A stretch of DNA of 64,000 nt from Shigella phage JK32. The DNA is taken from sequence record MK962753.1, one strand, 5' to 3'. Below, one piece after another: positions 16,280-63,482 of this stretch; the stretch's first letter is position 1, and the number at the start of each line of letters is the position of its first letter. The notes under the pieces are model-generated. The model worked only from the letters and a program-made list of their open reading frames with translations. It searched no databases and was not told the origin of the DNA. Both the position numbers and the translations under genes were made by a program.

Positions 16280-16507
16280 CTATTCAGTTAATCCGTAATA
16301 CTTTAATTGCTTCATTGTTATTCGATCTTTGTAGTGCTCTTGAATTAACTTTTTCATCGCATCAACATCGATCGTCACAAATACTTCGTTGCTGTGATTT
16401 CCGTGAACTTTCTTGAAATGCTCTATACCTTCCTCACGTTCACGTTTAATCTTTTCAATGTCTCTCATAGTATATTTCTCACGTTGGCGGGTATCGTCAC
16501 CCAACAC
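16280..16507 (-). CDS. hypothetical protein
   Basis: 75-aa ORF; only gene between uvsX and gene 43. Confidence 0.3.
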   Translation of the reverse strand: MLGDDTRQREKYTMRDIEKIKREREEGIEHFKKVHGNHSNEVFVTIDVDAMKKLIQEHYKDRITMKQLKYYGLTE

Positions 16508-16529
16508 CCGCCATTATACACACTTTATC

Positions 16530-18006
16530 TTAAATGTCAAACAGGTCTGTAAGAGATGCCACTTTTTCATATTGCAGCTTTGCAGCCGTGGTAATGTTCT
16601 CCAGTGGTTTGACGAAAGTCTTATTAAACAACAAAGGCCAGTCTAACCACTTTAACACCTCTGATTCAATTTCTGGAGGAATACGAGTACCGGACAACCA
16701 ACCAAAACAGATTTCTCCAAACGGATTTCGGTCTTTAAGCGGTACAATCATAACCTTCTCGCCTTCACGAATCGGATCTAGTCCGAATTTTCTGGCATTA
16801 CGATTATAACACAATACACTCTTAACCGCATACGGACAACCCTTAATCGGATACCCGTTTGAATCGCTGTATTTCTGTAGGTTGTTTGCAGATGATACCG
16901 CAGCAACCTCAAGATAATCAAGTTTTCTAAATTCTTGCTCAAAAATACCGTAGTATTCCTGCAATGACTCTTCACCTTCCTGCAACATACGGCGAATACA
17001 TTCTTTCAGTGATTTCTGACATGCTTTAGGGGTAGAGCTACGTTGCGTTTCCAAGCCCATGATTTTTAGCTTAGGTTCAGCAAAGCGTGTTCCTTCCATA
17101 TCCCAAACATTAAGAGCATAACGCTTTTTACCAGTCCAGAATCCACCGATACCCGCAGATTTCAACGGAGGACCAGCAATTGCCTCACGGTCCATAAACA
17201 TCAAGTGCTCATAGTTGTTCATGTACTCGCATAACTCGCGATATCCTTTGTCGATAATCGGTTCCATTCGATGTTTACCGAAATTATCAAGGAAGTCAAC
17301 AAGTTTTTCGGTATCGTCAAAACGGTCTTCCCCGCCAACCTTATCAACAACATTGTTAACCAGCACATAAACGGAGTCAGTATCACAATAACGAACATAT
17401 GCAAAATCAGTTGTTCCGCAAAGCTCGTTTAAGTATTCGTTAATCTTACGCTCAATCCACTGAATTGCAAGCTGACCGAACAGTGTGATCGCACTAGCGT
17501 TACGGAGATCATAAAAACGGAATTTAGGATTCCCCAACGCACCATAAAGGGAGTTGATCAAAACTTTTCGAGAAAGCTGGTTTGTATTGCACAAGATCGA
17601 CTCGTCTTTACATTCTTCCAGCAATTTCTCTAAGGCATCTTTGCTCAATTCAGAAAGCATCGATTTAAACGCTTCATCGAAGTCGTGACGCACTTCAACG
17701 CTATAGCTAATGGTTCCCCCATAAACATGATTTTCATCGTGTAGAATCGCTTTACAGAGTTCAGCATTGCGATCACATGCCAACATCATGTTTTTGTACT
17801 GCTTACGCTGGTCAAATACCTTTTTAATCTCAATCGGTACGATACCATGAATATCTTTTCGATACATCCATCCGTTAGGCGAGCAAGAATACTCATCACT
17901 CGGACGCGGGGCAGTTTTATTAATATACTCGTGCATCGGTGCAGCATCAAAAGATCCAGCGATTGTTTCCGGCGAAATGTTAGCCTGACGAATGATTGAT
18001 GGATAC
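16530..18006 (-). CDS. 43: DNA polymerase gp43, exon 2 (polymerase domain; KILINSLYGALGN and YCDTDSVYV motifs)
   Basis: Frame reads WYPSIIRQANISPETI... directly after an in-frame stop, upstream of the annotated Met at 17936; family-B motifs B and C present. Confidence 0.8.
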
Positions 18007-19120: not shown

Positions 19121-20352
19121 AGGGAAGTAAGGTCAAAACTCATCATCCATCTGTAAGCATTAGGCACTGGCTCTTTTACGAATGCACCCGGATATGTCTG
19201 TTTAGGCTGTATCTTATTTTCAGGTACTACTTTACCCTCAGCTTTCAGAGATCCGAAAATAATAGCATCCCATACTTTCATCGGGTTATAAACATGGTTA
19301 AATTTAATCTTTGCATAGAAACATAGACTATACACAAGATCGATAAATCCACGCTTTTTATCAATCGCCAGCACACGATCAACGTCGCCGATGTTATAAT
19401 CGATGTAAAGTTGATGGTTGTCATCACGCAATTTCTTTAACGGACCATCATAATCAACCTTACCGATTCCTGTCTCATATTCAGCAACATAATCTAACGC
19501 ATATGTTGGTTGAGTCGTAAAGCTAAATTTCTTGTACAGGTCAATATAATCAAGGCTTTCGATCCCCATGATCGTAAATGCTTCACGCTCGTTGCCAAAA
19601 TCATCCTGTGAGATTCGGGATTTAATCTTACCGCACGGGCTTAGACGGTTAGCGGTTCTACTTCCGAACTTATTACTGATACGTTTAATGATATATGGAA
19701 TATCGAATGTTTCTGTGTTCCAGCCAGTGAAACCAACGGGTCGGTTTTCCTCAAAGAATCGGATGTATTCTAACAGCAATTCATCTTCTGTATCATAGAC
19801 GTTATAAACAACGCGCTCTACAATATCAGGTCGAAGAATAGACTTTCTTGCTTCCCAGATTTCACCGTTTCTTCCTTTCAAATCAAATACAAAGAAACGA
19901 TCATGTACGGAATCATAATGCGTAATTGCATCGATAGGATATTTCGCTTCTTCTGGTTTAGGAAATTCTGGGGCGGTGACCTCAATATCAACCCATGCTA
20001 CACGGATTTTATTTCGGTCATATCGAATCTCGCCTTTATATGTATCGGACAGATAGGAGATGATAAAATCATCCATCCCTAGTGCCTCTTGCCCCATTTC
20101 TCCCATCTTTTTACGCCATTTGTTGGCCTCGTTCATAGATGGGAATTTTTTAGCAATGCAAGGCTTGCCATAGATATCTTTATAATTCGTAACCATACCA
20201 GGCGCGGCATGATGAAATAAAGTTGGCGTATATTCAACGTAACGCTCTTGTTCTTGTCCAGCATCATCAATATAACGCTCGTAGATCTTATCACCTACTC
20301 GCTCACATGACAGAAAATACATAATATAAACTCCTTCACTTACGAAAGACAC
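19121..20352 (-). CDS. 43: DNA polymerase gp43, exon 1 (N-terminal and 3'-5' exonuclease domains)
   Basis: Collinear with T4 gp43 residues 1 to about 410; ORF terminates one codon after ...SFDLTSL. Confidence 0.8.
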
Positions 20353-20404
20353 TCATTATAGGGGAATCGACTTAGTTTGTCAATACCCCTATCCCATCAG
20401 TATC

Positions 20405-21347: not shown

Positions 21348-22321
21348 TATACGAACTCCAATTCAACCATTAATTGCATTAACAAAAAGACAATGTGAAT
21401 CTCTTTATCAGCCGCGTGCGCAAACATCTGATTATTTTCACCGATAATCTCGGTCAGTCGGATAATCGACGCTGGCTTAACTTGAGTATACAACTCATTA
21501 TAAAGTTTCTTGACAAATTGAGCGTATGTGTTGGTATATCGCGGTGCTAGTTTACGCACATTAGCAAACTGTTTAGTTTTAAGTGCTTCCACCACATCGG
21601 TTACTTCGGTATTGCTACTTTCGATAACCATGCTCAATACGCCAGCATCAATTTTGCCATGTTTAGCGTAGCGGTCCAAAAGTTTCATTACGCGCCGGAA
21701 GTCTGGGAAGTTCTGCTTAACCAGTTCCGCCAGTACGCGCATTTCTTCTACTGGCACACCTTCTTTATCAAGAATTGCTTTACACCGGACGATCATTTCT
21801 TTCATCATGCGAAGCTGATCATCTTTGGTCGGAGATCCAAACGTGATGGGGTCAAATCGAGATCGCAACGCTGGGATAATACCTTCTAGATCATTTGCTG
21901 TAATGATGAATGTCACATTGTTTGAGTATGCCTCAGAGAAACTACGCAAGTGTCTTTGAGCATCAGCCAGCCCCGCTCGGTCATACTCATCGATAATAAC
22001 AACTTTGCCTTTTTCTCGTTTTTCTTCATCGAGTGATACACTCTGCGCAAAGCGTGTAATCTCATCGCGGATAAAATCAATCTTACAATCTGCGCCGTTA
22101 ACAAACAGATAATCAACACCCACATCTTCGCAAAGCGCCTTAGCAACGGTTGTTTTACCAGTACCCGGCGATGGGCTATGCAGAATCATTGAAGGGATTC
22201 GGCCTTGCTTAACAATCTGCGCGAAGATCTTTTTATCTGCTTCCGGCAGAATACATTCAGAAATTGATTTCGGACGGTATTTCTGTTCCCACTGAAACTC
22301 ATTTTCATTAACACTCAGCAT
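21347..22321 (-). CDS. 44: clamp loader ATPase subunit (AAA+)
   Basis: SPSPGTGKTTVAKAL Walker A; collinear with T4 gp44; start set at MLSVNENEF Met after GAGGTGA (ORF track extends to 22336). Confidence 0.85.
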   Translation of the reverse strand: MLSVNENEFQWEQKYRPKSISECILPEADKKIFAQIVKQGRIPSMILHSPSPGTGKTTVAKALCEDVGVDYLFVNGADCKIDFIRDEITRFAQSVSLDEEKREKGKVVIIDEYDRAGLADAQRHLRSFSEAYSNNVTFIITANDLEGIIPALRSRFDPITFGSPTKDDQLRMMKEMIVRCKAILDKEGVPVEEMRVLAELVKQNFPDFRRVMKLLDRYAKHGKIDAGVLSMVIESSNTEVTDVVEALKTKQFANVRKLAPRYTNTYAQFVKKLYNELYTQVKPASIIRLTEIIGENNQMFAHAADKEIHIVFLLMQLMVELEFV

Positions 22322-22346
22322 ATAATCACCTCTCACAAATTACATC

Positions 22347-22374
22347 ATTAAAACGGGGAGTATTTGCACTCCCC
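22347..22374 (-). terminator. rho-independent terminator after gene 45 (stem GGGGAGT/ACTCCCC)
   Basis: Hairpin followed by GTTTT on minus strand. Confidence 0.5.
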
Positions 22375-22386
22375 ACAAACATTATA

Positions 22387-23076
22387 TTAGTCGGTGTAGC
22401 TGGAGTCAAGGTCACACGCGATCATATAAGATACGGTTTCACCTGCCAGCCATACAGCCTTACGGCGAGTGAAGCTCAGTTTGTAATCGCCGAAGTCAGT
22501 AGCAACCAGTTTCATGTTATCTTTACGAATAAAGAAATGGAAGTCGGCGGTTCCGGCATATTCGCCCATGTCAAGACAAAACATCTCATTCGGATTATTT
22601 TTGTCAATCTCTTCCCAACCTTTGATCATCAGACGACCATCAATCGGTAGAAACTCAAGGCGATCCACTTTAAGCTGATTGCTCATTTTCATAAGCTGTT
22701 TCAGATCGTCGTTGCTCAGTTCGTAATCTACATCGCTTGCAGGTGGAGTAACTCGGCCTTTCGGTGATACGATAGCAGCAGCACTAGCACCAGGATAATT
22801 AATTTTCAGTCGATCGTTAGACACACGAATGTTTCCAGTTCGGTCATCAACCGTAATATCTGCTTCATCGCCTACCAGATTCAGAATACCCAGGAAAGAG
22901 TTAAGATCATAGATCCCAATTTCGTGTTCCAGTTCTTGATTCAGAGTCGCTTCACCATATACAACGTTTGTCATGTTTTTGGTGATCAGGACGTTTCCTT
23001 TTTTCAGGATGATACCTGGGTTAATAGCGGAAAAGTTTTTCAGGGTAGCAATGGTTTCTTTAGTCAGTTTCATCAA
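22387..23076 (-). CDS. 45: sliding clamp
   Basis: 229-aa ORF collinear with T4 gp45. Confidence 0.85.
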   Translation of the reverse strand: MMKLTKETIATLKNFSAINPGIILKKGNVLITKNMTNVVYGEATLNQELEHEIGIYDLNSFLGILNLVGDEADITVDDRTGNIRVSNDRLKINYPGASAAAIVSPKGRVTPPASDVDYELSNDDLKQLMKMSNQLKVDRLEFLPIDGRLMIKGWEEIDKNNPNEMFCLDMGEYAGTADFHFFIRKDNMKLVATDFGDYKLSFTRRKAVWLAGETVSYMIACDLDSSYTD

Positions 23077-26898: not shown

Positions 26899-27158
26899 CG
26901 TACAGACTCCATAGACCCACGAGCAATAACATTCTGGGTAATATCAGCAATCTTACGGGATACGATGTTTGTTAGCCCCTCTTTGGTGATATTTTCACGA
27001 TCAAATGGGATTTCGTCATGAGTCCACAAACCATAGTTAGACCGAAATGATAGCATATACTGACCATCTCGCACAACCTCAAATACATGGATCTTAGTGA
27101 ATTTCGATAAACCTTCGTTGATTTCTTTCAGTGCATTAGTAATCATAACAACCTCCAA
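26895..27158 (-). CDS. hypothetical protein
   Basis: 87-aa ORF. Confidence 0.35.
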   Translation of the reverse strand: MEVVMITNALKEINEGLSKFTKIHVFEVVRDGQYMLSFRSNYGLWTHDEIPFDRENITKEGLTNIVSRKIADITQNVIARGSMESVR

Positions 27159-27200
27159 TCAATTTTTAGAGAGTATAACGGGGATTTCTCCCCGCGTCAA

Positions 27201-28235
27201 CTAACTTTTTGCGCTATTTACTTCGGCTAAAAGTTCATCAGAAATACGCTTGACCGCCGCAAGTTCTTCCGGTTCTAGGTTTTGTTCTTCCAGATATTCA
27301 TAGACCATCTGAATAGTGCTTTTAACTTCAATAACACCTGTTTCCTGTGATGCGCTACTCTCCAGCTTATGGACCACTTTTAGCTTGTGTACAACGGCCT
27401 CTAATGCGCTTTCTAACTTAGTTAACCCATTATCAGCGACCGTTGCGATAAGACGCACACTAAGCCCCTTAAAGCGTTCTACATCGATTTTATCATCTGA
27501 CGGGTAAGTGATACGCACATGATAAGTTTTGTCATTCTGGATAAACTCTTTTTTGTGTGTATCGGTATCGAATACCCAAAAACCACGCGGATCATTTTCG
27601 TCACCCGCCGTTAGTGTGTATGGTGTGCCAATATACGTTACGTTACCACCATCGCTGATAGTATGAAAGTGACCAGAAAACACTTCACGGTATTTCTTGA
27701 GGAAGTCCGCGCTATAACCTTCAGATTTTAGCCCTTTATAGAAATAGTAACCGGACAATTCCCAATGGCCTACACAATATTCGCTGAATGAGTTTTGAAT
27801 AAACTCTAAAATCTCTGATTTATTGTCATCACAAAACCACGGGAACAGATCAAATGATACACCATCAAAGGTAACTGTTTCCGGTTTATCGATAACCTTA
27901 ATGCAATCATACTGGCTTAACACTTCACGCGGTGCGTTAGGCTGGATCTTGTTTCGTTTAAACATATCATGGTTCCCGACCGTGATATAACAAGTAATAC
28001 CAGCCTCTTCCAGTAACGGGATGATTTTCGTTCTATTAAAACGCATAGTTGCATGTGTGATTGCTTTTCGGCAATCAAACCAGTCCCCTGTCTGAATCCA
28101 TGCCTTAATATTATGTTTTTTTGAATAATCGACTGCCTTTTTAATAGTATCAAGAATATACTCATGTATCCACGGATCATCGTTGCCGATACCAGTATGC
28201 AGATCACCCAAAAGCAAAATTTTCATATTATACAT
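27201..28235 (-). CDS. 47: recombination nuclease subunit (Mre11/SbcD-like phosphoesterase)
   Basis: 344-aa ORF; LLGDLHTG and GNHD phosphoesterase motifs. Confidence 0.85.
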   Translation of the reverse strand: MYNMKILLLGDLHTGIGNDDPWIHEYILDTIKKAVDYSKKHNIKAWIQTGDWFDCRKAITHATMRFNRTKIIPLLEEAGITCYITVGNHDMFKRNKIQPNAPREVLSQYDCIKVIDKPETVTFDGVSFDLFPWFCDDNKSEILEFIQNSFSEYCVGHWELSGYYFYKGLKSEGYSADFLKKYREVFSGHFHTISDGGNVTYIGTPYTLTAGDENDPRGFWVFDTDTHKKEFIQNDKTYHVRITYPSDDKIDVERFKGLSVRLIATVADNGLTKLESALEAVVHKLKVVHKLESSASQETGVIEVKSTIQMVYEYLEEQNLEPEELAAVKRISDELLAEVNSAKS

Positions 28236-35017: not shown

Positions 35018-35228
35018 TTACCCCGAACTCGTTTACAATCTGCGCTTTATAGTAACCACCGCGAGATGCCAATAGATAAGCTGGGCTTAGGTATTCGTAT
35101 TCACGGATTTCTACTTGTGCGTTTTCAGTTTCCCAAATCAGTAAAGTCCACATATTTGATTCTCCTGTAAAGTTGTATCTCGTCTTGATGAATATAGTAT
35201 AGGGGATCTCGCGATCCCCGTCAAGCAT
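35001..35228 (-). CDS. hypothetical protein
   Basis: 75-aa ORF. Confidence 0.3.
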   Translation of the reverse strand: MLDGDREIPYTIFIKTRYNFTGESNMWTLLIWETENAQVEIREYEYLSPAYLLASRGGYYKAQIVNEFGVIEYEF

Positions 35229-35762
35229 TTATTTTAAATTTTTTCGAATGTATTCAGACCATTCTCTGCCAGTAAGTTCGGTCCCATTCTGGAAACTGAA
35301 ATATTCATACGGCATCGAGTCAAGATAAAACAGGATCATACATCGCGCCATATAATACCAATCACGATTAAAGTAAACTACGTTATCGCCAGTACCATCA
35401 ACCCCTTTATCATAACCATCGCGGGTACGGGCGACCCATTGAATAGTATCATTTTTCTCACGGATAGTAACAGGTTCCCAATATCCAGCACAGCCAGCAT
35501 GACCACACGAACAAGTAAGGAAATATTGACCTTTTGCTTTGTTGTCATCCCATTCACGATGAATTGGTTCGATTTCGTGAAACAGTGCCAAGCAATCATG
35601 ATTATGCAACACTGGCTTACCATCAATCAATGCATGGAATGTATGCAAACGACCAGTAGACAAATAGCTATCCTCACGCTCAACCAGTTCAATAGCAATC
35701 TTTTTAGCTCGTTCTTTGTGTCGTTGTGCTTTACGCTTACGGTTTAATGATTTCATACTCAC
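35229..35762 (-). CDS. hypothetical protein
   Basis: 177-aa ORF. Confidence 0.4.
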   Translation of the reverse strand: MSMKSLNRKRKAQRHKERAKKIAIELVEREDSYLSTGRLHTFHALIDGKPVLHNHDCLALFHEIEPIHREWDDNKAKGQYFLTCSCGHAGCAGYWEPVTIREKNDTIQWVARTRDGYDKGVDGTGDNVVYFNRDWYYMARCMILFYLDSMPYEYFSFQNGTELTGREWSEYIRKNLK

Positions 35763-35775: not shown

Positions 35776-36309
35776 TTAGCAACGATACTGCACATTATCA
35801 AAATGAGAATGTACATTACCGATGGTATAGATCAAAAATCCCTCGTCCGGCGATTGCACCACAAATTGAGTAGGTCCAACTGCAACAACCTTAAACACAC
35901 GATCACTAACTTTGTGTTTAATCTCTGCGCCAACTTCCAAAGGAACAAATTTTACTGTGGAAAGTTCAATACCAAAACCATCATCATGCAAACGAATAGG
36001 TTTATTGTTATCGATCATTTTCACATATTCAAGATCATACAATTCGCGGGTGCTATCAGTGTAAACCAATACTGTATTGTTATGATAACGAATTACATAC
36101 ATGTTATGGTCATCATCAAGTACACATAAATTACGAATCGGTGTACCCTCTCCTTTTTTACTCCAACAGATATTAACCACATTACCTTGAATTGTGAATG
36201 GCTTAGACGTTCCGAAAGTCGCTAAAGTGCTTTCTCTCATCTGGACGGTTACGCGAGTCCCAATAGTCAGCGGCTTAAAATCATACCCATTAGTCAGTAC
36301 ACAAAACAT
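35776..36309 (-). CDS. hypothetical protein
   Basis: 177-aa ORF. Confidence 0.4.
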   Translation of the reverse strand: MFCVLTNGYDFKPLTIGTRVTVQMRESTLATFGTSKPFTIQGNVVNICWSKKGEGTPIRNLCVLDDDHNMYVIRYHNNTVLVYTDSTRELYDLEYVKMIDNNKPIRLHDDGFGIELSTVKFVPLEVGAEIKHKVSDRVFKVVAVGPTQFVVQSPDEGFLIYTIGNVHSHFDNVQYRC

Positions 36310-36341
36310 AATGTTATCCTCTCTTTGTTTTCGATGTGAGC

Positions 36342-36369
36342 ATTATACATTAGCTAATCAGGTTGTCAA
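36342..36369 (-). promoter_or_regulatory. early sigma70-like promoter (minus TTGACA 36369-36364, TATAAT 36347-36342)
   Basis: Hexamers, 16-nt spacer. Confidence 0.5.
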
Positions 36370-36374
36370 CACCT

Positions 36375-36407
36375 AAAAACGAAAAAGCCGACCCTTTCGG
36401 ATCGGCT
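36375..36407 (-). terminator. rho-independent terminator after nrdD (stem AGCCGA/TCGGCT, UUCG-type loop)
   Basis: Hairpin plus T-run on minus strand. Confidence 0.5.
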
Positions 36408-38319: not shown

Positions 38320-38814
38320 TTATTTTACCAGTTCTGCTAATTCTTTTTCCGCCGCTTCCAGTTCAGCTTTCAGTTGTTTAATCTCTTGTCGCTTCTTATT
38401 AGCGGCTTCCTGCTTACTATTTCGGATAACCTGATCTAGATATGAATCCCACTCCTGAATATTTTTGATAATGTAACCGTCAACGTTCAGAACTTTAATA
38501 TTAAGAACTTCTTCCAGCTTACTTAAAGAACGTTGTGTTTCGGGGAAGAAATAGTCATATTCACCTCGGTCAAACCAGTAGCGTATGCCAGCTTTATCTA
38601 AACGACGATGCAATTCATCAAAATCTCTACCATCTTCGACGATGAGTTTGTCTACATCGCCATTACAGTTAACAGAGACTTTGAATCTAATATTATCAAC
38701 CCCACCAAAAACATCAATAAGGATAGTTCCTATCGTGTTATCCGCGCTTCCAGTATCCATAAAAGATTCTAGTTTTTCTTGATTAGTAACGTACCAAACA
38801 TCTTGTTTCCACAT
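38320..38814 (-). CDS. paralogous family protein (coiled-coil tail)
   Basis: 164-aa ORF; C-terminal QEIKQLKAELEAAEKELAEL. Confidence 0.4.
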   Translation of the reverse strand: MWKQDVWYVTNQEKLESFMDTGSADNTIGTILIDVFGGVDNIRFKVSVNCNGDVDKLIVEDGRDFDELHRRLDKAGIRYWFDRGEYDYFFPETQRSLSKLEEVLNIKVLNVDGYIIKNIQEWDSYLDQVIRNSKQEAANKKRQEIKQLKAELEAAEKELAELVK

Positions 38815-38838
38815 AATATAATCCTCTCGTTGTTAAGT

Positions 38839-38872
38839 GGGAGTATTATAGCATACTCCCTTCGCATGTCAA
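38839..38872 (-). promoter_or_regulatory. early promoter with stem-loop (hairpin GGGAGTA/TACTCCC spanning TATAAT; minus TTGACA 38872-38867)
   Basis: Direct reading; -10 lies in hairpin loop. Confidence 0.5.
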
Positions 38873-40047
38873 GCACTAACTTTTTTCTTTACTGCTTTCA
38901 CCTTCTGGCGAATTGCTCGAATCTCTTCGATCTCTTTTTCAGTCTCTTTAACAATTTCTTTGCGATTCTGAATATCTGTATCGAGATTATCATCAAGTTT
39001 AGGCAGCATGTCAATCAAGAACTTTTTAAAGTCTTTCAGGTTTCTGATAACAGCACCTTCACCCATTACCGCCACCCCTACACCATCCGGCAGATCGCCA
39101 AACAGTTTAACCAGTTCAGACAGATGATCATGATCTTCTAGTGCTTCTTCCGGTTCAGATGGCAGTTCAACAAAGTTATAACGTTCATCATTGCTGATGA
39201 GGTGATACCAGCAAAGCCCGAATGATTTCGGTGTATATTCTACACCATCAATTTCAACCGAGTCAACACTTCCATAATCATCTACTTTAGTTACCTTAAA
39301 TCCTTGTCCCAGCTTTTGAACAATTTCAACAACATGACTTGATACAGTTTCAGCGGTAAACCAATATGGCAAATTATGCTGATTTGGCTTGTAGCGTTCA
39401 CCTACTTTAAATCTCTGACCAGCCGCTTGCATAGCATGAAATTGTTGTTTCGTGATTTCCGCGAAGTATTCAAATTCGCTACCATCAAACACACAAGCCC
39501 ATTGATCACAAAAACGATCTGCCTTGACGGTTTCACCTTTCGCGGTGATCATGGTAGCTGATCCGTGCAATTCTTCTTCAACTAAAAAGCCATATTCGAC
39601 AAAATCGACAAGTTTCATGGCTTCTTTGTGCTCTGGATCATGCTCTCCCCAGAATCGCTTAAATTCTTGCAAACCTTCCGGGGTAAACGAATAACATTTA
39701 CCTTTTTCAAAGTAAGTCGGCATTGCATCCTCTTTCTTGTTCATCGCTTCGTATGCCTCTTTTGAGATGCGTTTAAAGTATTTGCGCTCATTGTGCATAA
39801 TCATAGTAGACCAATAATAAACGATATCCTCAGCGGAATAAACTACATCTCCAGCTTCAATAGTAATAACATGACCGTGGTCATCTTTTTCTAATACTTT
39901 AAAGCCCTTTTCTACGATTTCAGCAACCCGAATATGACCACGGCGCGAAGCATCGGTCAGAATAATTGAATAGCGAGAAAAGTCTAGAAACTCATCTTTA
40001 CCGCCTTCACGGAATGCATAGTAATGACCTTCAAAGAATTTAGCCAT
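38869..40047 (-). CDS. paralogous family protein, three tandem domain copies
   Basis: FEGHYYAFREGGKDEF, FEKGKCYSFTPEGLQEF and a third repeat; tail LKDFKKFLIDMLPKLDD. Confidence 0.45.
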   Translation of the reverse strand: MAKFFEGHYYAFREGGKDEFLDFSRYSIILTDASRRGHIRVAEIVEKGFKVLEKDDHGHVITIEAGDVVYSAEDIVYYWSTMIMHNERKYFKRISKEAYEAMNKKEDAMPTYFEKGKCYSFTPEGLQEFKRFWGEHDPEHKEAMKLVDFVEYGFLVEEELHGSATMITAKGETVKADRFCDQWACVFDGSEFEYFAEITKQQFHAMQAAGQRFKVGERYKPNQHNLPYWFTAETVSSHVVEIVQKLGQGFKVTKVDDYGSVDSVEIDGVEYTPKSFGLCWYHLISNDERYNFVELPSEPEEALEDHDHLSELVKLFGDLPDGVGVAVMGEGAVIRNLKDFKKFLIDMLPKLDDNLDTDIQNRKEIVKETEKEIEEIRAIRQKVKAVKKKVSA

Positions 40048-40071
40048 AATATAATCCTCTCGTTGTTAAGT

Positions 40072-40106
40072 GGGAGTATCTTACTACTCCCGTTTCATCA
40101 TGTCAA
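40072..40106 (-). promoter_or_regulatory. early promoter with stem-loop (GGGAGTA/TACTCCC; minus TTGACA 40106-40101)
   Basis: Direct reading. Confidence 0.45.
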
Positions 40107-40687
40107 GCGTTAAATGACTTTTGGATCTCTTTCAGTTCAGCTACTTTATCGGCGCTGAATTTAGCGTAGGTATCATGTCGAATAATTTCACTTTCAAGAA
40201 AGGTTTCCAGACGAGATCTATTTTCAATAAGGAACTCTTTCAGGTCTTCCGCGTTCTTGATAAAGATTTTATTGTCGGTAATGTCATCTTCAATCGCAAA
40301 GGAGATAGAGCGAACTTTACCAAACAAGTTAATCAGATCTTCCAGAGATTCTTCTTTCTTAACTGGTTTCATTTCTTCAAACTGCTTTTTAGTGATTCGT
40401 TTAAAGTATTTGCGCTCGCTTGCATCAATCATGATTGACGCGCCCTCATAATCATGAGTTTCTACCAAATACACTTTACCCATAACATTAACCGTCAGAA
40501 CTTTAAAGCCCTTGTGAAGCACACCATACAGGAACTTGTTATGTTGTGGATAGCGTTTAACAAATTCCTCTGCGGACTCAGCATTACGGAAAGTGTAATA
40601 ACGACCTCGTTCAAAAACAGCATCATTTGAAGACTTAGCCGGATACAATTTATACGTTTTCTGTACCATAATATAATCCTCTATCAT
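40103..40687 (-). CDS. paralogous family protein
   Basis: FERGRYYTFRNAESAEEF; tail AEDLKEFLIENRSRL. Confidence 0.45.
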   Translation of the reverse strand: MIEDYIMVQKTYKLYPAKSSNDAVFERGRYYTFRNAESAEEFVKRYPQHNKFLYGVLHKGFKVLTVNVMGKVYLVETHDYEGASIMIDASERKYFKRITKKQFEEMKPVKKEESLEDLINLFGKVRSISFAIEDDITDNKIFIKNAEDLKEFLIENRSRLETFLESEIIRHDTYAKFSADKVAELKEIQKSFNA

Positions 40688-40956
40688 TTCACTAATTGAA
40701 CAGCACGAAACAGAATGCGGTCACACGGAAGCAGCATAAATTCCCAACGCGGTTCAAAGTCTTTAGCGGTATATGTTTTCCCATCAACCGAGATTTCACT
40801 TACATAACCAATAGGTGACACTTTAAGAACAGTAAATCCATTCTTGATGACTTCGTAGGTATCTTTCAATCCGTCGTAGTCATCCTCTAGGAAGTCTTTA
40901 CGTGCTTGCTCAGATTTAAAAACATAGGCCACACCGGATTTAAACATCTTACGCAT
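40684..40956 (-). CDS. paralogous family protein (single domain)
   Basis: Start set at MRKMFKSGVAYVFKSEQARKDF after AAGGAGAA; ORF track extends to 41016 into the promoter. Confidence 0.4.
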   Translation of the reverse strand: MRKMFKSGVAYVFKSEQARKDFLEDDYDGLKDTYEVIKNGFTVLKVSPIGYVSEISVDGKTYTAKDFEPRWEFMLLPCDRILFRAVQLVK

Positions 40957-40981
40957 TGTTGATTCTCCTTCTTGATTAGAT

Positions 40982-41016
40982 GGGAGTATTTTATTACTCC
41001 CATTTCTTATTGTCAA
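40982..41016 (-). promoter_or_regulatory. early promoter with stem-loop (GGGAGTA/TACTCCC; minus TTGACA 41016-41011)
   Basis: Direct reading. Confidence 0.45.
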
Positions 41017-41019
41017 CTA

Positions 41020-41508
41020 CTATCTTAATCTTTGTATAAATTGTTTCTTATACTTCTTCGTGATCTCTTCTCTTGTATCCGCGTCGCAGTAATCGAAACC
41101 TTCTGCGTCCATAATAGCAACCATCTCCGCGCGTGTCAAGCGTGAAAATCGTTTTACTTTATCAACAGCATATTGAGGATGTAAATGATTGTTGGTGTAG
41201 TCTCCTTTGATGTAATTAACATAGTTTGTAGCCCAAACAACGAAATCAGCACCTAAAGCACCAACACCAAACCGTTTAAAGTCTCCAGTCAACGATCCTT
41301 CTAGGCGGTTGCAACACGAATGAAGCAATCCCCTTACGCGGCCTTGCCCTTTCCCATCTAGATCGTGGTCGTGGTCAAGATGGTTTTTGCTCATATCCTC
41401 AAAAAGTGGCAATTGACAAAGGGGGCAATTGCCCCCCTGTTTTTCGAATAGTTCTTGTTTGTACTCTTTAGCACTCTTAGCAGTCAGTAACATAAATTCA
41501 CCCTCCAA
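41020..41508 (-). CDS. 49: recombination endonuclease VII (Holliday junction resolvase)
   Basis: NHLDHDHDLDGKGQGRVRGLLHSCCN matches T4 gp49 catalytic region; collinear. Confidence 0.85.
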   Translation of the reverse strand: MEGEFMLLTAKSAKEYKQELFEKQGGNCPLCQLPLFEDMSKNHLDHDHDLDGKGQGRVRGLLHSCCNRLEGSLTGDFKRFGVGALGADFVVWATNYVNYIKGDYTNNHLHPQYAVDKVKRFSRLTRAEMVAIMDAEGFDYCDADTREEITKKYKKQFIQRLR

Positions 41509-43869: not shown

Positions 43870-44178
43870 TTATTTCACGTTAACGCCGTCATCAATCCAG
43901 CCGACGCTATTTGGTTTAACAGTTTTACCATAGGATGCATACTTAATCAAGCATGGTTTAACATCATTATCAAATCTTCCTAAACGTACTCCAAAATCAG
44001 GAATATCCATGTATGCGGCTTTATATCCCCATGTGCCATATTCAGAATCAATCTCAACCGGACGGCCTTTAAAAGCATACACTACACCGTGACGGTCAAC
44101 GATAACATAGCAATAGCCAGCCGGAAGATACACAGTTTCGCCGTAAACTTTAACTGGAGTAGCAGAAGAGATAAACAT
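43870..44178 (-). CDS. hypothetical protein
   Basis: Start set at MFISSATPV after GAGG; ORF track extends to 44214. Confidence 0.35.
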   Translation of the reverse strand: MFISSATPVKVYGETVYLPAGYCYVIVDRHGVVYAFKGRPVEIDSEYGTWGYKAAYMDIPDFGVRLGRFDNDVKPCLIKYASYGKTVKPNSVGWIDDGVNVK

Positions 44179-44204
44179 AATATAATCCTCACATCGTTCA
44201 TTTG

Positions 44205-44241
44205 ATGCGGTCATTATATGATAACCGCATTTTCATGTCAA
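44205..44241 (-). promoter_or_regulatory. early promoter with stem-loop (ATGCGGT/ACCGCAT spanning TATAAT; minus TTGACA 44241-44236)
   Basis: Direct reading, 17-nt spacer. Confidence 0.5.
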
Positions 44242-44247
44242 CAGTTT

Positions 44248-44622
44248 TTAAAAATCTTCTTCCGGTTTATATCGACCGTCATCGACTGGTTTTGGACTGA
44301 ATCCGGTATGTGTTCGCGGTTTAGCTTCCGGTTTGCCAGCAATCATCAAACCAAAACATTTCAATCCTTTATAGCACATAACAATATTAACCACTGTCCA
44401 CGTTATAGGCCATACGATTGCAGCAATACAAAATGCTCCTGTATCGACCTCTTTGGTGTCCTTGTCGAATCTGGCGTACAAGCAGAATACTAGATACGAG
44501 ATCATTGCACCCGTAGGCCAGATATAAAGCACATTAACAATATCTTGTGTTGTCACGTTATCCTCCTTACATGTCTTGCAGTGCATAAAAGCATTTTTCT
44601 TCGTAGTCATAGAAAATGTCAA
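44248..44622 (-). CDS. membrane protein (several hydrophobic helices)
   Basis: 124-aa hydrophobic ORF. Confidence 0.4.
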   Translation of the reverse strand: MTFSMTTKKNAFMHCKTCKEDNVTTQDIVNVLYIWPTGAMISYLVFCLYARFDKDTKEVDTGAFCIAAIVWPITWTVVNIVMCYKGLKCFGLMIAGKPEAKPRTHTGFSPKPVDDGRYKPEEDF

Positions 44623-44845
44623 AGTATGCTTTTTCTACATACTCGCCATTGATCCAAGCGGCAGTAACAATCAGAGTGGTCCAGTTAGATCCGCTCTCAA
44701 CGGTAAAGGTTTTAATACCCAGCTTCGCTGCTAAGTCGAACGCAAACCGGACGCAACCACGGCAGGAAGTGATATTGGAAGTTTTGATTTTAAAGCCACC
44801 GCGAGTTTTAGAAATTTCTACTTTAGCGAAAGACAGGTTGCTCAT
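44567..44845 (-). CDS. hypothetical protein
   Basis: 92-aa ORF after promoter cassette. Confidence 0.35.
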   Translation of the reverse strand: MSNLSFAKVEISKTRGGFKIKTSNITSCRGCVRFAFDLAAKLGIKTFTVESGSNWTTLIVTAAWINGEYVEKAYFDIFYDYEEKCFYALQDM

Positions 44846-44887
44846 TTTGATTCTCCTTAAGAAAGTGTGTTTCGTTTTGATGTGTGT

Positions 44888-44916
44888 AGTATAGGGGATC
44901 GGTGATCCCCTGTCAA
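44888..44916 (-). promoter_or_regulatory. early sigma70-like promoter (minus TTGACA 44916-44911, TATACT 44893-44888; hairpin GGGGATC/GATCCCC in spacer)
   Basis: Direct reading. Confidence 0.45.
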
Positions 44917-44925
44917 CAACTTTTT

Positions 44926-45255
44926 TTATGAGTTTAGTGAATTAACTACTACATCAAAATGATGTACAGAGTACACCTTATTAAACACATACTCATCGTG
45001 TTTAGGAATAGCCCCTAATCGCTCTATTTCGCTCGCTAACACGATAAACCGTTTATCCGGTGCATTTACCTTATATGCTTCAACAACGCACGGGAAACGC
45101 GTTTCAGAGAGTTCTGGATAGTTTTCTGAATCCATCAGGACAATGAATACCCTGTTACATTGATTGTAGAATCCTGTTTTTGATTTCATCAAGTTTTCTT
45201 CTCTGTACAATTCGTGCAATCTTCCTTTCATGATTTCGTTGGTTCTTGTCTTCAC
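44926..45255 (-). CDS. hypothetical protein
   Basis: 109-aa ORF; overlaps next ORF by about 100 nt so start uncertain. Confidence 0.3.
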   Translation of the reverse strand: MKTRTNEIMKGRLHELYREENLMKSKTGFYNQCNRVFIVLMDSENYPELSETRFPCVVEAYKVNAPDKRFIVLASEIERLGAIPKHDEYVFNKVYSVHHFDVVVNSLNS

Positions 45256-46673: not shown

Positions 46674-46935
46674 TACATGCTTTTAATGCATCAGTCGCGG
46701 TGTCATAGCGAGTATTATCATAGCACCAGTAACCATCGGTCAACTGATAAATCAATCCATCCCTTTTAGCTTCGATGAAAGATAACTCTTTGAAAGTTTC
46801 TACTTTCTTTGCTGATACTCCACGGTCACGGCGCTTATAGAGTTTAGCTAAAATGCGTTCAGCTTGTTCCTCTTTATCACCAGACAGATCCCAAATAATG
46901 TTGCGGATATGTTTGATTAATTGTTCAGTGGTCAT
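46645..46935 (-). CDS. hypothetical protein
   Basis: 96-aa ORF after promoter cassette. Confidence 0.35.
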   Translation of the reverse strand: MTTEQLIKHIRNIIWDLSGDKEEQAERILAKLYKRRDRGVSAKKVETFKELSFIEAKRDGLIYQLTDGYWCYDNTRYDTATDALKACNDHLRKTTV

Positions 46936-46964
46936 CTTTGATTCTCCTTAGTTGGTATGTGTGC

Positions 46965-46992
46965 ATTATAGCACTATGATTTTCATTGTCAA
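46965..46992 (-). promoter_or_regulatory. early sigma70-like promoter (minus TTGACA 46992-46987, TATAAT 46970-46965)
   Basis: Consensus hexamers, 16-nt spacer. Confidence 0.55.
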
Positions 46993-47002
46993 CAACTAAA
47001 AA

Positions 47003-47029
47003 CAAAAAAGGCTACCCCGAAGGATAGCC
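47003..47029 (-). terminator. putative rho-independent terminator after adhesin-like gene
   Basis: Imperfect GC hairpin with UUCG-type loop followed by T-run on minus strand. Confidence 0.4.
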
Positions 47030-47036
47030 CATAAAA

Positions 47037-47870: not shown

Positions 47871-48092
47871 TTAGATGACCTCTGCTTCACCATTCAGGAA
47901 GAAAGACCATGTTTTGTTAGGATAGCGAAGCGCCCATGATTCAGCAGTTTTAACACCAGCTTCGAACAATTGACGGCTGGTTACTTTAGCCATACCATCT
48001 TCGATGGCAACGTTTTCAATAATCATCGGGTACTTAGCGCCACGCATGAAACCGAAGCCAGCGGAAGATTTGATAATTTTAACAGTTGCCAT
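47871..48092 (-). CDS. hypothetical protein
   Basis: 73-aa ORF. Confidence 0.35.
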   Translation of the reverse strand: MATVKIIKSSAGFGFMRGAKYPMIIENVAIEDGMAKVTSRQLFEAGVKTAESWALRYPNKTWSFFLNGEAEVI

Positions 48093-48133
48093 TTTTGATT
48101 CTCCTAGAAAGTGTATCTCGTTTCGATGGGTGT

Positions 48134-48162
48134 ATTATGCAATAACACCGGATCGCTGTCAA
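48134..48162 (-). promoter_or_regulatory. early sigma70-like promoter (minus TTGACA 48162-48157, CATAAT 48139-48134)
   Basis: Direct reading, 17-nt spacer. Confidence 0.5.
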
Positions 48163-48180
48163 CACTTTCTAAGAAAAATT

Positions 48181-48465
48181 TTAAATTAATCGAATATAGC
48201 CCAGAATTTCAGCACTTTTAGCCAGTCCTAAAACTTCCCATTCAATGTCGCCGTAGTCATAATTTGCAACCATCAACTGACCATTTTTCATGCAGCATTC
48301 ATGAGAGAAAATTTGCCCCGCATAAACTACGATCGTAATAAACTTTCCTGATTCTGGCGGTATGGAAGACAAAGCGACCATATGACCATTCAATTTAGTC
48401 ACCAGTGATGGAACAATAAAATTCGGGCTTACCTGAATGTCGTTAAATTCGTTTGTGTCTTTCAT
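48181..48465 (-). CDS. hypothetical protein
   Basis: 94-aa ORF. Confidence 0.35.
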   Translation of the reverse strand: MKDTNEFNDIQVSPNFIVPSLVTKLNGHMVALSSIPPESGKFITIVVYAGQIFSHECCMKNGQLMVANYDYGDIEWEVLGLAKSAEILGYIRLI

Positions 48466-49147: not shown

Positions 49148-49346
49148 TCTTCACGGTCTCCATAATTGTTTTGTAAGCCAGTTTAAGATGATCACCGAAA
49201 AACTTTGCAGTGTTACCCTTCGGATCGCGGAGCATGGTTTCTACGATCTCATCGGCAGTAACAATTTCTCCTTTCTTTGCTGCATGTCCTACCATATACT
49301 TCAAAGTTTCTTCGGAAGCAAGTGCTGCGGCTACTGGATTAATCAT
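49137..49346 (-). CDS. hypothetical protein
   Basis: 69-aa ORF. Confidence 0.35.
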   Translation of the reverse strand: MINPVAAALASEETLKYMVGHAAKKGEIVTADEIVETMLRDPKGNTAKFFGDHLKLAYKTIMETVKNAK

Positions 49347-49375
49347 TTTGATTCTCCTTTGTTGTCGATGTGTGC

Positions 49376-49404
49376 ATTATGCTATACCCTATTCCGGTTG
49401 TCAA
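49376..49404 (-). promoter_or_regulatory. early sigma70-like promoter (minus TTGACA 49404-49399, CATAAT 49381-49376)
   Basis: Direct reading, 17-nt spacer. Confidence 0.5.
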
Positions 49405-49408
49405 CACC

Positions 49409-49445
49409 TAAAAACGAAAAAAGCCACCCTTTCGGATGGCTTTTG
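49409..49445 (-). terminator. rho-independent terminator after the 712-aa gene
   Basis: GCCACCC/GGATGGC hairpin with T-run on minus strand. Confidence 0.45.
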
Positions 49446-54475: not shown

Positions 54476-55066
54476 TCAATAGCGTTTAGTTTTAAGAATG
54501 CCTTTACTCTTTAGATGGTTAGCCTTTTTTAGTACGTCATCAGCATAACCCAATCCGGCTTTATAGTTCCATCCAGCATTGTAAGAAGCTAGCGCGAGTC
54601 GGATATTACCGTTTCGAACATCCAGCCAGTATGCTAACTCATCCATCGCGTAGAATGCAGAAACCTCGCGATTCATGATAAAGTTGATAGTCTGGCGATC
54701 ACTCATTTTAACACCGCGCTTTGCATTTTTCGCTTTCACCGTTTTAAGGTAATTTTGAAATAATCCATAAGCATGATGATTTTTCTTTGGTGCTAAGTTT
54801 GCACCCGCGCTTGATTCTTGCCATGCGATACCCGCCATGATGTGACCTAAACCCTTTCCGTTATAGCGAATATTCGGATGGTCATGTTTCAACTTACCGC
54901 TTTTCTCGAATTGTTCGCCGTATTGATAGGCGAAATGTAAATTATCTAGTTGGTGTGCTGTAAAGTTGTCTATCGGCGCTTTTTTGATCGGTGCGCTAGT
55001 CGATGCGTGTGTAGCACCAACGGCTAGTGACAGACTCAATACTATCGCTTTTAGAACTTTTAACAT
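54476..55066 (-). CDS. secreted lytic transglycosylase (SLT domain)
   Basis: Signal-like N-terminus; SLT signature motifs IAWQESS, AYGLFQ and SYNAGW. Confidence 0.7.
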   Translation of the reverse strand: MLKVLKAIVLSLSLAVGATHASTSAPIKKAPIDNFTAHQLDNLHFAYQYGEQFEKSGKLKHDHPNIRYNGKGLGHIMAGIAWQESSAGANLAPKKNHHAYGLFQNYLKTVKAKNAKRGVKMSDRQTINFIMNREVSAFYAMDELAYWLDVRNGNIRLALASYNAGWNYKAGLGYADDVLKKANHLKSKGILKTKRY

Positions 55067-55151
55067 TAATTTCTCCTGTTTGGTTTAACTTTCTGATTCC
55101 ATAATATAGCCCTATCACCAGAAAGTCAAGCATTAATTTAACCAATTTCCA

Positions 55152-55575: not shown

Positions 55576-55914
55576 TTATTCTCCTTTCTTAAACAAATTG
55601 CGAAGCCAGTATACAAACGGGATTTCTTTAAACTTGAACTTGTCAATAGTTAATTCTTTAGTAGCAAGATGAATACCATAAGCATCATGTGTCACGATAT
55701 GCCATTTTCTATAGTCCAAATGTGAACAACCGTCTGAATCTAGGTTAATAATAGTTTCTCGCTCACTAGGATTGTTTTTCCACAATTTTGTAATCGGATC
55801 ACACATAATTCGACCTAGCGTACCATGAATAATCTCACAACGGTAAAGTTTTCCGGCAGTGATATAGGCACACCCGTCATAGTCGGTATAAACAAACACT
55901 TCTTTAACACTCAT
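55576..55914 (-). CDS. hypothetical protein (small YxF-motif paralog)
   Basis: 112-aa ORF. Confidence 0.35.
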   Translation of the reverse strand: MSVKEVFVYTDYDGCAYITAGKLYRCEIIHGTLGRIMCDPITKLWKNNPSERETIINLDSDGCSHLDYRKWHIVTHDAYGIHLATKELTIDKFKFKEIPFVYWLRNLFKKGE

Positions 55915-55940
55915 TTTTAATACTCCTTTGTTGTGTCGAT

Positions 55941-55975
55941 GGGGGTATATTACTACCCCCGATCATGGGTGTCAA
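55941..55975 (-). promoter_or_regulatory. early promoter with stem-loop (GGGGGTA/TACCCCC; minus TTGACA 55975-55970)
   Basis: Direct reading, 17-nt spacer. Confidence 0.45.
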
Positions 55976-56236
55976 CTACTTTTTCAAGAATTTTTTAATT
56001 GCGTTCCAAAGACCTTTATTCTCAGGCTGTTTTGGTTCTTCGATCAGTGTCCACGGACGGTCGTCAAGATATGCACAGCTTTTCAGAGAAATAAAAAGTT
56101 TGTATCCTTTATCATCTTTGATGTAACCGTAGGTAGACATTCTTTCATCTGGCGTAAACTTATACAGTTTATTTGGGGTGATGTAAGATCTACTACTATA
56201 AGGTGTCATTACATATTTCATGGTACTAACTCCCAT
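55976..56236 (-). CDS. hypothetical protein (small paralog)
   Basis: 86-aa ORF; similar to 56218-56412 product (YxFTP...GYI.DD.G). Confidence 0.35.
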   Translation of the reverse strand: MGVSTMKYVMTPYSSRSYITPNKLYKFTPDERMSTYGYIKDDKGYKLFISLKSCAYLDDRPWTLIEEPKQPENKGLWNAIKKFLKK

Positions 56237-62393: not shown

Positions 62394-62720
62394 TTAGAAA
62401 GAAACAGTTTTCAAGAAATCCAGATTTTTAGTACCGAAAACAGAAAAGTAGTGTTTTCCTTTTTCGGTTTTAGAGAAAGCGATTGTCTTCTCTACATGGT
62501 GACGGAAGCCAGACAGACGATCACCCAAGTCAAGGCGGCAAGCGTAAGTAGTGCCGTTTTCGAAAGTAACCTCGATTTGAGTTTTGTCATATTCGCTTTC
62601 ATAGGCTTTTGCTGCCGCGTCCTTTGCTTTACGCTCGAAGTCTTCGAAGTGGAATACTTCGTTTGCGTTAGCGAATACAGAAGATTCAGAGAAGATAACT
62701 TTAACAGATACTGGTTTCAT
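62394..62720 (-). CDS. hypothetical protein
   Basis: 108-aa ORF after promoter cassette. Confidence 0.4.
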   Translation of the reverse strand: MKPVSVKVIFSESSVFANANEVFHFEDFERKAKDAAAKAYESEYDKTQIEVTFENGTTYACRLDLGDRLSGFRHHVEKTIAFSKTEKGKHYFSVFGTKNLDFLKTVSF

Positions 62721-62762
62721 TTTGATACTCCTTAGTAGTTCGTGTTTCGTTTCGATGGGTGT

Positions 62763-62791
62763 ATTATGCTATACACCCTCTCGCGTGTCAA
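62763..62791 (-). promoter_or_regulatory. early sigma70-like promoter (minus TTGACA 62791-62786, CATAAT 62768-62763)
   Basis: Direct reading, 17-nt spacer. Confidence 0.5.
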
Positions 62792-62799
62792 CAACTTTT

Positions 62800-63424: not shown

Positions 63425-63453
63425 TTTGATTCTCCCGTTTCGTTGATGGTTGT

Positions 63454-63482
63454 ATTGTAGGGGAGTTATACTCCCCTGTCAA
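63454..63482 (-). promoter_or_regulatory. early sigma70-like promoter (minus TTGACA 63482-63477, TACAAT 63459-63454; hairpin GGGGAG/CTCCCC in spacer)
   Basis: Direct reading. Confidence 0.45.

Follow-up and report, generated by a model that had tools for sequence, protein, structure and literature searches.

The window analyzed here is the first 64 kb of the genome of Shigella phage JK32, an RB49-like coliphage of the genus Krischvirus, counted from the rIIA stop codon at position 1. This stop codon is the conventional start for RB49-like genomes. The minus strand carries every gene up to 64 kb, in the order of RB49 ORF001 to about ORF117 (gene names were taken from the RB49 and Phi1 annotation), and the G+C content is ~40%. 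The window is 92–98% identical to RB49, Phi1, JSE, GEC-3S, Brandy and FL20; megablast searches with the 36–42 kb and 42–64 kb portions matched only RB49-like coliphages (Krischvirus), namely FL20, Brandy, RB49, JSE, Phi1, GEC-3S and others, and returned no identical record.

The element in focus lies beside frd.2 and reads, on the minus strand from position 38872, TTGACA tgcgaaGGGAGTATgc TATAAT ACTCCC acttaacaacgaGAGGattatatt ATG. It combines a perfect −35 hexamer (38872–38867), a 16-nt spacer and a perfect −10 hexamer (38850–38845) with a leader, a GAGG Shine–Dalgarno (SD) sequence and an ATG at 38814, and an 8-bp inverted repeat, GGGAGTAT/ATACTCCC, brackets the −10 hexamer (RNA fold z = −2.9). 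A first-pass annotation had described this layout at 38839–38872, and the description is accurate for both hexamers, the spacer and the repeat. The 101 nt of the focal site are 96–100% identical across 58 of 58 Krischvirus records. The GEC-3S record labels the site 'promoter' and annotates a promoter and/or terminator at this and many other orthologous sites, and several orthologous sites in the RB49 RefSeq record are labeled 'hypothetical early promoter'.

Cassettes of this kind recur throughout the window (Table 1). The exact pattern TTGACA-N15–19-TATAAT has nine matches, all nine on the minus strand, compared to an expectation of 0.07. A relaxed promoter scan returned 64 matches on the minus strand and 8 on the plus strand, with ~9.8 in Markov-1 random sequence; once an SD and a start codon within 10–75 nt, opening an ORF of at least 35 aa, were also required, 28 minus-strand and no plus-strand matches were left, where random sequence gives 0.23. 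An unbiased repeat search of the window likewise recovered the cassettes as the main dispersed repeat families; in family D7, for example, c36369 and c49404 share 90% identity across 49 nt. The proposed recurrence of promoter-plus-stem-loop cassettes beyond chance is thus borne out by the statistical scans and the repeat search together. An nhmmer profile built from 21 cassette copies placed 32 of its 34 matches on the minus strand and added no convincing degenerate copies in the window to the consensus-scan set. Neither the profile nor the consensus scan found a strong cassette in the 56–62.7 kb stretch of small ORFs, where the junctions carry a stem-loop only. About 21–25 minus-strand cassettes are truly intergenic, so that the earlier count of 'at least 15' was conservative, and the six sites given as examples (3203, 40106, 41016, 44241, 55975 and 63482) were all verified.

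The cassettes are intergenic and co-oriented with the early genes, and most of them precede small, functionally unassigned ORFs in hyperplastic regions. The suggested preference for small genes in variable regions is reflected in the 15 of about 25 cassettes that fall at 35–64 kb, upstream of ORFs of 50–177 aa. The same scan applied to RB49, Phi1, JSE, GEC-3S and Brandy returned 31–33 cassettes per genome, and in at least eight window cassettes the hairpin segments recur identically at colinear positions in five relatives. When the whole window was compared with Rfam at gathering thresholds, no family matched, and the cassettes are therefore not a curated RNA family.

Table 1. Promoter and stem-loop cassettes of the JK32 window, ordered by coordinate.
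Cassette	Coordinates	Strand	Gene context	Promoter	Hairpin or terminator	Other features
c2833	2772..2853	-	upstream of ORF004		GGGGATAT/ATATCCCC around -10	
c3203	3139..3223	-		perfect	13-bp hairpin around -10, then T-run	overlapping promoter and terminator features at this site in GEC-3S
c9653	9593..9673	-	upstream of srd		none	leader 92% identical to that of c46992 (family D18)
c10222	10158..10242	-	upstream of modB		GCCTCC/GGAGGC and T-run, downstream of -10	
c16540	16466..16540	-	before ORF025 homologue	perfect hexamers	GGCGGGT/ACCCGCC downstream of -10	promoter annotated in RB49 and GEC-3S
c20383	20320..20403	-	before gene 43	perfect hexamers	weak hairpin	RB49: early promoter
c22409	22319..22409	-	before gene 44		hairpin and T-run downstream of -10	orthologous site in RB49 RefSeq: 'hypothetical early promoter'
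c27200	27144..27220	-		TTGACG-17-TATACT	GCGGGGA/TCCCCGT in spacer	
c35224	35151..35244	-		TTGACG-17-TATACT	GGGGATC/GATCCCC in spacer	
c36369	36307..36407	-		perfect	terminator 36407-36386 and T-run, then promoter	
c38872 (focal)	38812..38892	-	between frd.2 (ORF058 homologue) and ORF057 homologue	see text	see text	
c40106	40045..40126	-	upstream of frd.2	TTGACA-17-TAAGAT	GGGAGTA/TACTCCC around -10	leader equals c38872 leader over 35 nt (repeat family D10, 100%)
c41016	40954..41036	-	before ORF060 homologue	TTGACA-17-TAAAAT	9-bp ATGGGAGTA/TACTCCCAT around -10	
c44241	44176..44261	-		perfect	10-bp ATGCGGTTAT/ATGACCGCAT around -10, one G.T pair	
c44916	44843..44936	-			GGGGATC/GATCCCC in spacer	long leader ATCAAAACGAAACAC
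c46992	46933..47030	-		perfect	intrinsic terminator 47030-47009 and T-run, directly before promoter	
c48162	48090..48182	-		TTGACA-17-CATAAT	weak bulged hairpin around -10	long leader
c49404	49344..49444	-			11-bp terminator 49444-49419 and T-run, then promoter	indel boundary at 49449 (upstream edge)
c55129 (weaker)	55064..55149	-	upstream of vs.1	TTGACT-17-TATTAT		GEC-3S promoter at orthologous site
c55975	55912..55995	-		TTGACA-17-TAATAT	GGGGGTA/TACCCCC around -10	
c62791	62718..62811	-		TTGACA-17-CATAAT	GGGTGTAT/ATACACCC around -10	exact leader CCCATCGAAACGAAACAC
c63482	63422..63502	-			GGGGAGT/ACTCCCC in spacer	
c63752	63675..63772	-		TTGACA-17-CATAAT	no strong hairpin within promoter; upstream stretch ...ggagtggcttttttt may be a terminator end (candidate)	exact long leader

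On the minus strand, the common layout consists of an A/T tract, TTGACA, a spacer of 16–18 nt (slightly wider than the 16–17 nt first proposed), a TATAAT-like hexamer, a C-rich discriminator, a leader, an SD and ATG. The A/T tract is visible in an alignment of 21 cassettes, often as AAAAAGTTG, and the motif AAAAGTTGTTGACA, with up to two mismatches, has 10 matches compared to 1.1 expected. The −10 hexamer varies among TATAAT, CATAAT, TATACT, TAAGAT and similar forms, several of which (e.g. TAAGAT and TAATAT) carry two mismatches. Of the conserved leader in the first-pass annotation, only the beginning is widely shared: the full 18-nt CCCATCGAAACGAAACAC (up to three mismatches) occurs in only four cassettes, whereas a shorter C-rich/ATC(G/A)A start is found in about 12; a continuation, ...AACGAAACAC, is present in 4–5 copies. 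The ribosome-binding site, given as AAGGAG, resolves into two consensus types, GGAGAATCAAA-ATG (12 copies) and GAGGATTATATT-ATG (15 copies). Ten of the 12 minus-strand occurrences of GGAGAATCAAA lie in promoter cassettes. The GAGGATTATATT-ATG consensus is present also on genes without a promoter cassette, and part of the 'conserved leader' is therefore the general ribosome-binding consensus of the phage.

The inverted repeats, noted originally around the −10 hexamer or in the spacer, are strongly enriched relative to random 100-nt windows (Mann–Whitney p = 5e-10), and in 16 of 25 cassettes the hairpin exceeds the cassette's own shuffles at z > 2. Folding of ten cassettes as RNA with ViennaRNA recovered the expected hairpin, with z from −2.2 to −3.7. 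Nine hairpins lie around the −10 hexamer and four in the spacer, and there are two further classes, with three hairpins upstream of the −35 hexamer and 3–4 downstream of the −10. Every hairpin of the −10-bracketing class has a 6-nt loop that spans the hexamer, while the upstream class comprises three stems of 9–11 bp with a T-run, immediately before the −35 hexamer, which were called terminators in a scan of 35–55 kb. Across six genomes, 23 distinct −10-bracketing hairpins are 100% paired in register, compared to 45–64% when the partner is slid; since this set was preselected for at least six pairs, it is informative only in its variety of pair types. The arms include GGGGGTA, GGGAGTA, GGTGTAT, GGGATAT and CGGTTAT, with a complementary 3′ arm every time. 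Insofar as the arms differ yet the 3′ arm stays complementary, it is the pairing and not the arm sequence that is conserved, in a set that was selected for pairing. Pairs were counted on a loop-anchored gapless alignment; a MAFFT alignment was dropped because it lined the copies up by their −10 hexamers and 3′ arms, which left the 5′ arms in two different registers.

The canonical form of a rho-independent (intrinsic) terminator, a GC-rich hairpin followed by a U-run, was found in only 7 of the 19 classified hairpins; for the other 12, the sequence does not predict a terminator because the U-tract is absent. Specifically, the twelve promoter-embedded hairpins (spacer or −10-bracketing) have no T-run, with 1–4 T in the 9-nt tail. 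A strand asymmetry of the kind expected from G.T wobble pairs, measured as sense versus antisense folding energy, stood out in the three canonical upstream terminators alone; the promoter-embedded hairpins showed no clear asymmetry. Among orthologous −10-bracketing stems, single changes were seen in three cases, and each produced a G.T pair on the sense strand (3/3), a number too small for significance.

Elements of this description have been published for close relatives as PeSLs (promoter-early stem-loops). Arbiol et al. (2010, Genome Biol Evol 2:140, PMC2839356) defined 51 PeSLs in RB49 and 52 in phi1, mostly preceding ORFans in hyperplastic regions, each with an AT-rich region ahead of a near-perfect sigma-70 promoter (TTGACA-N17-TATAAT), with an SD and an ATG at the 3′ end, and with a polyG/polyC stem-loop (Gn-loop-Cn) that takes one of five positions with respect to the promoter. 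Comeau et al. (2014, PMC4122927) restate this consensus and stem for RB49 and phi1, and Nolan et al. (2006, PMC1524935) found that the RB49 early-promoter consensus fits the mapping of early-transcript 5′ ends, with C preferred at −3 to −1. The cassette c44916 is identical at 88 of 101 positions to PeSL211/210 of RB49, which has a spacer-class hairpin. The parallel drawn in the first-pass annotation with the promoter-early stem-loop cassettes of T4-type phages is therefore upheld by the match to the RB49/phi1 anatomy. Judged by their sequence, the window cassettes are PeSLs, which were already known for Krischvirus from a published description, from tests of some of them and from annotation in public records. 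We consider it highly probable (roughly 90%) that a single reading, in which the cassettes are the PeSLs of an RB49-type T4-like phage, combining promoter, read-through hairpin, leader and portable homology, best explains the observations.

By analogy with relatives, in which this has been shown, each cassette would serve as a strong sigma-70-type early promoter for unmodified host RNA polymerase immediately after infection, and the A/T tract ahead of TTGACA may play an UP-like role. The promoter of PeSL206/205 has a published activity of about 13,000 Miller units (PMC2839356). The first transcribed base is most likely the A in the conserved ATC(G/A)A, ~7 nt past the −10 hexamer. Given this start, a promoter-embedded hairpin would have its C-rich 3′ arm ahead of +1, in the untranscribed discriminator, so that the hairpin would be absent from the cassette's own mRNA and would form only in read-through transcripts from the upstream gene. 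In such read-through RNA, the hairpin may terminate or attenuate transcription, or form a stable 3′ end, and the small early genes would then be insulated units. For the twelve hairpins lacking a T-run, an attenuator role is suggested by the published test of one such element: the PeSL211/210 stem-loop, placed between a promoter and lacZ, cut expression about as much as rrnB T1 (PMC2839356). This is the single stem-loop tested in the published work, by reporter assay only (PMC2839356).

The ribosome-binding sites may add a second function. The T4 RegB/S1 cleavage consensus GGAGRAYARAA, as quoted in PMC3014915 from Durand et al. (2006), is matched by GGAGAAUCAAA at 10 of 11 positions; both occur in intergenic early translation-initiation regions, and the window encodes regB (55152–55574). 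RB49 RegB is described as significantly diverged from T4 RegB (PMC3014915). Given the 10/11 match, and with regB also encoded, early shut-off is a probable additional role of the GGAGAAUCAAA ribosome-binding sites, as candidate RegB targets.

Other roles for the hairpins have to be weighed against attenuation of read-through. They might serve mainly as mRNA 3′-end stabilizers or processing barriers for the upstream gene, acting against 3′ exonucleases after cleavage by RegB or RNase E. Such a role would suit the stability of the promoter-embedded hairpins (about −12 to −14 kcal/mol, with no U-tract) and their position just past the upstream stop codon and just ahead of the probable RegB site; however, the published reporter test gave a strong drop in downstream expression, read as termination (PMC2839356), and we regard stabilization as the main function as rather unlikely. 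The promoter-embedded repeats could instead act as DNA, either as a dyad operator for a shut-off or recombination protein or as a supercoil-extruded hairpin that exposes a single-stranded −10. Consistent with this, all twelve coincide exactly with the spacer or the −10 hexamer, lack a T-run, and are near-perfect Watson–Crick palindromes without strand asymmetry, and the loop over the −10 hexamer is of constant length. Nevertheless, the variation of the arms under preserved complementarity counts against recognition by a single sequence-specific protein, except one that reads the GGG/CCC ends alone, and the hairpin occupies varying positions relative to the promoter, in five classes. Moreover, the spacer-class stem-loop between promoter and lacZ lowered expression, which is a transcript-level effect (PMC2839356), and all three orthologous changes keep sense-strand G.T pairing, although this last point is weak. 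A DNA-level function thus appears improbable, and we would give similarly little credence to the twelve hairpins without a U-tract being a DNA/RNA-level switch rather than terminators, bound for instance by an early-promoter shut-off or nicking factor. If the switch were real, the hairpin together with the RegB-like GGAGAAUCAAA would make each cassette a self-contained on-then-off module.

Read as PeSLs, the cassettes would also matter for genome rearrangement. Units of ~100 nt, repeated every ~1–3 kb in the same orientation, could offer portable homology to the phage recombination system, leading to gene conversion between neighboring copies and occasionally to the deletion or insertion of a gene between two copies. 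Alignment of the window with five relatives revealed 16 distinct indel or replacement events, of which at least 6–7 are homing-endonuclease ORFs or intragenic inserts. A cassette is touched by 4 of the 16 (p = 0.04 when compared with random positions, but p = 0.27 under a gene-junction null, the junctions being counted with heuristic gene calls that began too far inside several long genes). The JSE deletion of ORF004 has its junction within the c2833 leader and retains a leader/SD remnant before ORF003; a JSE-specific ORF adjoins the −35 hexamer of c3203; a homing-endonuclease insertion in JSE ends in the c10222 promoter; and the insert carrying a 712-aa ORF has a boundary at the base of the c49404 terminator. 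Three further events fall at junctions with a stem-loop but no promoter. Because the enrichment is not significant against the gene-junction null, the association of breakpoints with cassettes in the window is weak.

Clearer evidence of exchange than that of the indel breakpoints appears to come from chimeras. The frd.2 cassette of the window, c40106, is a chimera with the leader of c38872, its nearest neighbor downstream, so that a 35-nt identical direct repeat flanks frd.2, where four relatives share only 23 nt. In Brandy, the cassette at frd.2 has a promoter and hairpin that are those of the ORF060 cassette. Compared at the sequence level, the chimeric makeup of the three cassettes around frd.2 shows exchange between neighboring copies. 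A mini-circle of frd.2 (38869–40047, with the 35-nt repeats on both flanks) is predicted to have its junction in ACTCCCACTTAACAACGAGAGGATTATATT; in RB49 and phi1, mini-circle junctions in PeSLs lie between the −10 hexamer and the ATG (PMC2839356). For modular gene shuffling, which the first-pass annotation mentioned for similar cassettes of T4-type phages, the support from the window is modest: the chimeras around frd.2 and the four cassette-bounded indels favor recombination between copies, and the enrichment of indels at cassettes over gene junctions is not significant.

The same observations bear on whether the cassettes are transcription punctuation only, their likeness reflecting functional convergence and common ancestry without a special role in gene shuffling. 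Such a view can draw on the lack of breakpoint enrichment at cassette-bearing junctions relative to gene junctions, on the predominance of homing-endonuclease ORFs among the indels, on orthologous cassettes staying in place in all 58 relatives, and on the genome-wide use of one of the two ribosome-binding consensus sequences. Yet the similarity exceeds functional need in the 100% identical c38872/c40106 leader and in the c36369/c49404 pair, and punctuation leaves unexplained the natural chimeras of neighboring cassettes in the window and in Brandy; the JSE ORF004 junction inside a cassette leader and the published mini-circle junctions inside PeSLs (PMC2839356) also speak against it. As an account of the cassettes as a whole, punctuation alone is therefore doubtful, if still worth entertaining; for most individual copies, punctuation without a recombination role is possible.

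PeSLs have been put forward in the literature as possible 'linker' sequences in Botstein–Campbell modular phage evolution. The window represents one more isolate in which they are present and conserved, and the cassettes themselves are not new. What the window adds is, first of all, the natural chimeras in the three cassettes of the frd.2 region, which show gene conversion between neighbors. In addition, more indels in this region come from homing endonucleases than from cassettes, and most promoter-embedded hairpins are free of a U-tract, which bears on how attenuation would work.

Among known systems, integron cassettes (attC) and lambdoid 'morons' resemble PeSL genes as small accessory genes that move as units with their own expression or recombination signals; unlike in integrons, an integrase and an attC-type site are absent in the window, and exchange would presumably proceed via general homologous recombination. 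The repeats of the T-even IP locus (Repoila et al. 1994, as summarized in PMC2839356) likewise combine an early promoter and a stem-loop beside small variable genes and were proposed as exchange points, but in that summary they have T4-type early promoters and weaker, AT-rich stems. Arbiol et al. call them analogues, not homologues, of PeSLs (PMC2839356). The PeSLs of T4/PST and KVP40/nt-1, and the PmSLs of nt-1, a middle-promoter version, also pair a promoter with a stem-loop in hyperplastic regions and near indels (PMC4122927). They differ from the window in their promoters (TTTACW...TAYWAT in T4/PST and TTGYVH...TAWWAT in KVP40/nt-1) and in their stems (AGNA/TCNT and A3–4G3/C3T3–4, respectively; PMC4122927), and the PST stem-loops are shown just upstream of the promoter (PMC4122927, fig. 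3 legend). The PeSLs of RB49 and phi1 are the closest in kind, being alike in genus, anatomy, orientation and preference for small ORFans in hyperplastic regions. Their positions are orthologous, the reporter-tested PeSL211/210 has a near copy in c44916, and their crossover zone between the −10 hexamer and the ATG matches the cassette chimeras in the window. Two points differ: homing endonucleases outnumber cassette-linked indels in the 64-kb window, and the promoter-embedded hairpins of the window are mostly without a U-tract, a point absent from the discussion of Arbiol et al. (PMC2839356). In essence, however, the window cassettes do not differ from the RB49/phi1 PeSLs, and represent the same elements in a separate isolate.

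Several of the differences between the window and its relatives RB49, Phi1, JSE, GEC-3S and Brandy lie at inserted ORFs. An insert of ~1.1 kb, which is missing in RB49, Phi1, GEC-3S and Brandy, breaks up the window's DNA polymerase gene (gene 43), leaving two ORFs; at the same gene 43 site, JSE carries a different, partly overlapping insert. Encoded within the window's insert is a 295-aa ORF for which Pfam returned no match. Four free-standing homing-endonuclease-type ORFs are also present, each coinciding with an indel in comparisons with relatives, and promoterless stem-loops flank two of them (57151-57744 and 58892-59467). Between the homologues of rI.-1 and ORF084 lies an inserted ORF of 712 aa, whose sole match, to Ig_3, is faint; it takes the place of 191 bp in RB49, JSE and GEC-3S. 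Brandy has a similar-sized annotated ORF at the corresponding place (Brandy 47245-49392), and its alignment with the window contains no indel there.

Coordinates of the features discussed, in window numbering
Feature	Position	Detail
Gene 43, whole region	16530-20352	two ORFs
Gene 43, ORF parts	16530-17936 and 19114-20352	
Insert in gene 43	18006-19132	~1.1 kb
ORF within insert	18147-19034	295 aa
Homing-endonuclease-type ORF	5037-5795	Endonuclease_7
Homing-endonuclease-type ORF	28242-28796	HNH_3+AP2
Homing-endonuclease-type ORF	57151-57744	NUMOD4+HNH_3
Homing-endonuclease-type ORF	58892-59467	HNH_3+AP2
Inserted ORF	49451-51589	712 aa
Divergent patch	32871-33140	
Repeat-sharing ORFs	33116-34502	four ORFs
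Doubly aligned segment	45578-45750	173 nt
Tandem duplication	60591-61122	266-bp unit
Initiation consensus, example sites	2107-2121, 40667-40681, 61784-61798	minus strand

Three other places involve repeated sequence, in the window or in its relatives. In a repeat search, a conserved N-terminal coding repeat of ~69 nt came up in each of four ORFs in a row (the counterparts of RB49 ORF049-051 and neighbours), which look like a local paralogous gene family; a nearby patch is divergent in the alignment with all five relatives. Elsewhere, a single segment of the window aligns with two adjacent places in RB49, Phi1, GEC-3S and Brandy, and these four genomes possess an extra small ORF (ORF074) that is absent from the window and JSE, a combination that suggests unequal exchange between adjacent paralogous ORFs. 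The third case is a perfect tandem duplication (two copies, 100% identical), the unit of which occurs once only in each of the five aligned relatives. Each copy takes in the 3′ part of one small ORF, together with a GCGGGTAG...CTACCCGC hairpin and the beginning of the ORF that follows.

A 15-nt translation-initiation consensus, GAGGATTATATTATG, recurs at 15 sites on the minus strand (0.3 expected), and is also found ahead of genes that lack a promoter cassette, including rIIA. In RB49, the GGAU Shine-Dalgarno sequence of regB is cleaved in vivo by RegB (review, PMC3014915), and by analogy the GAGGATTATATTATG sites might be further RegB targets.
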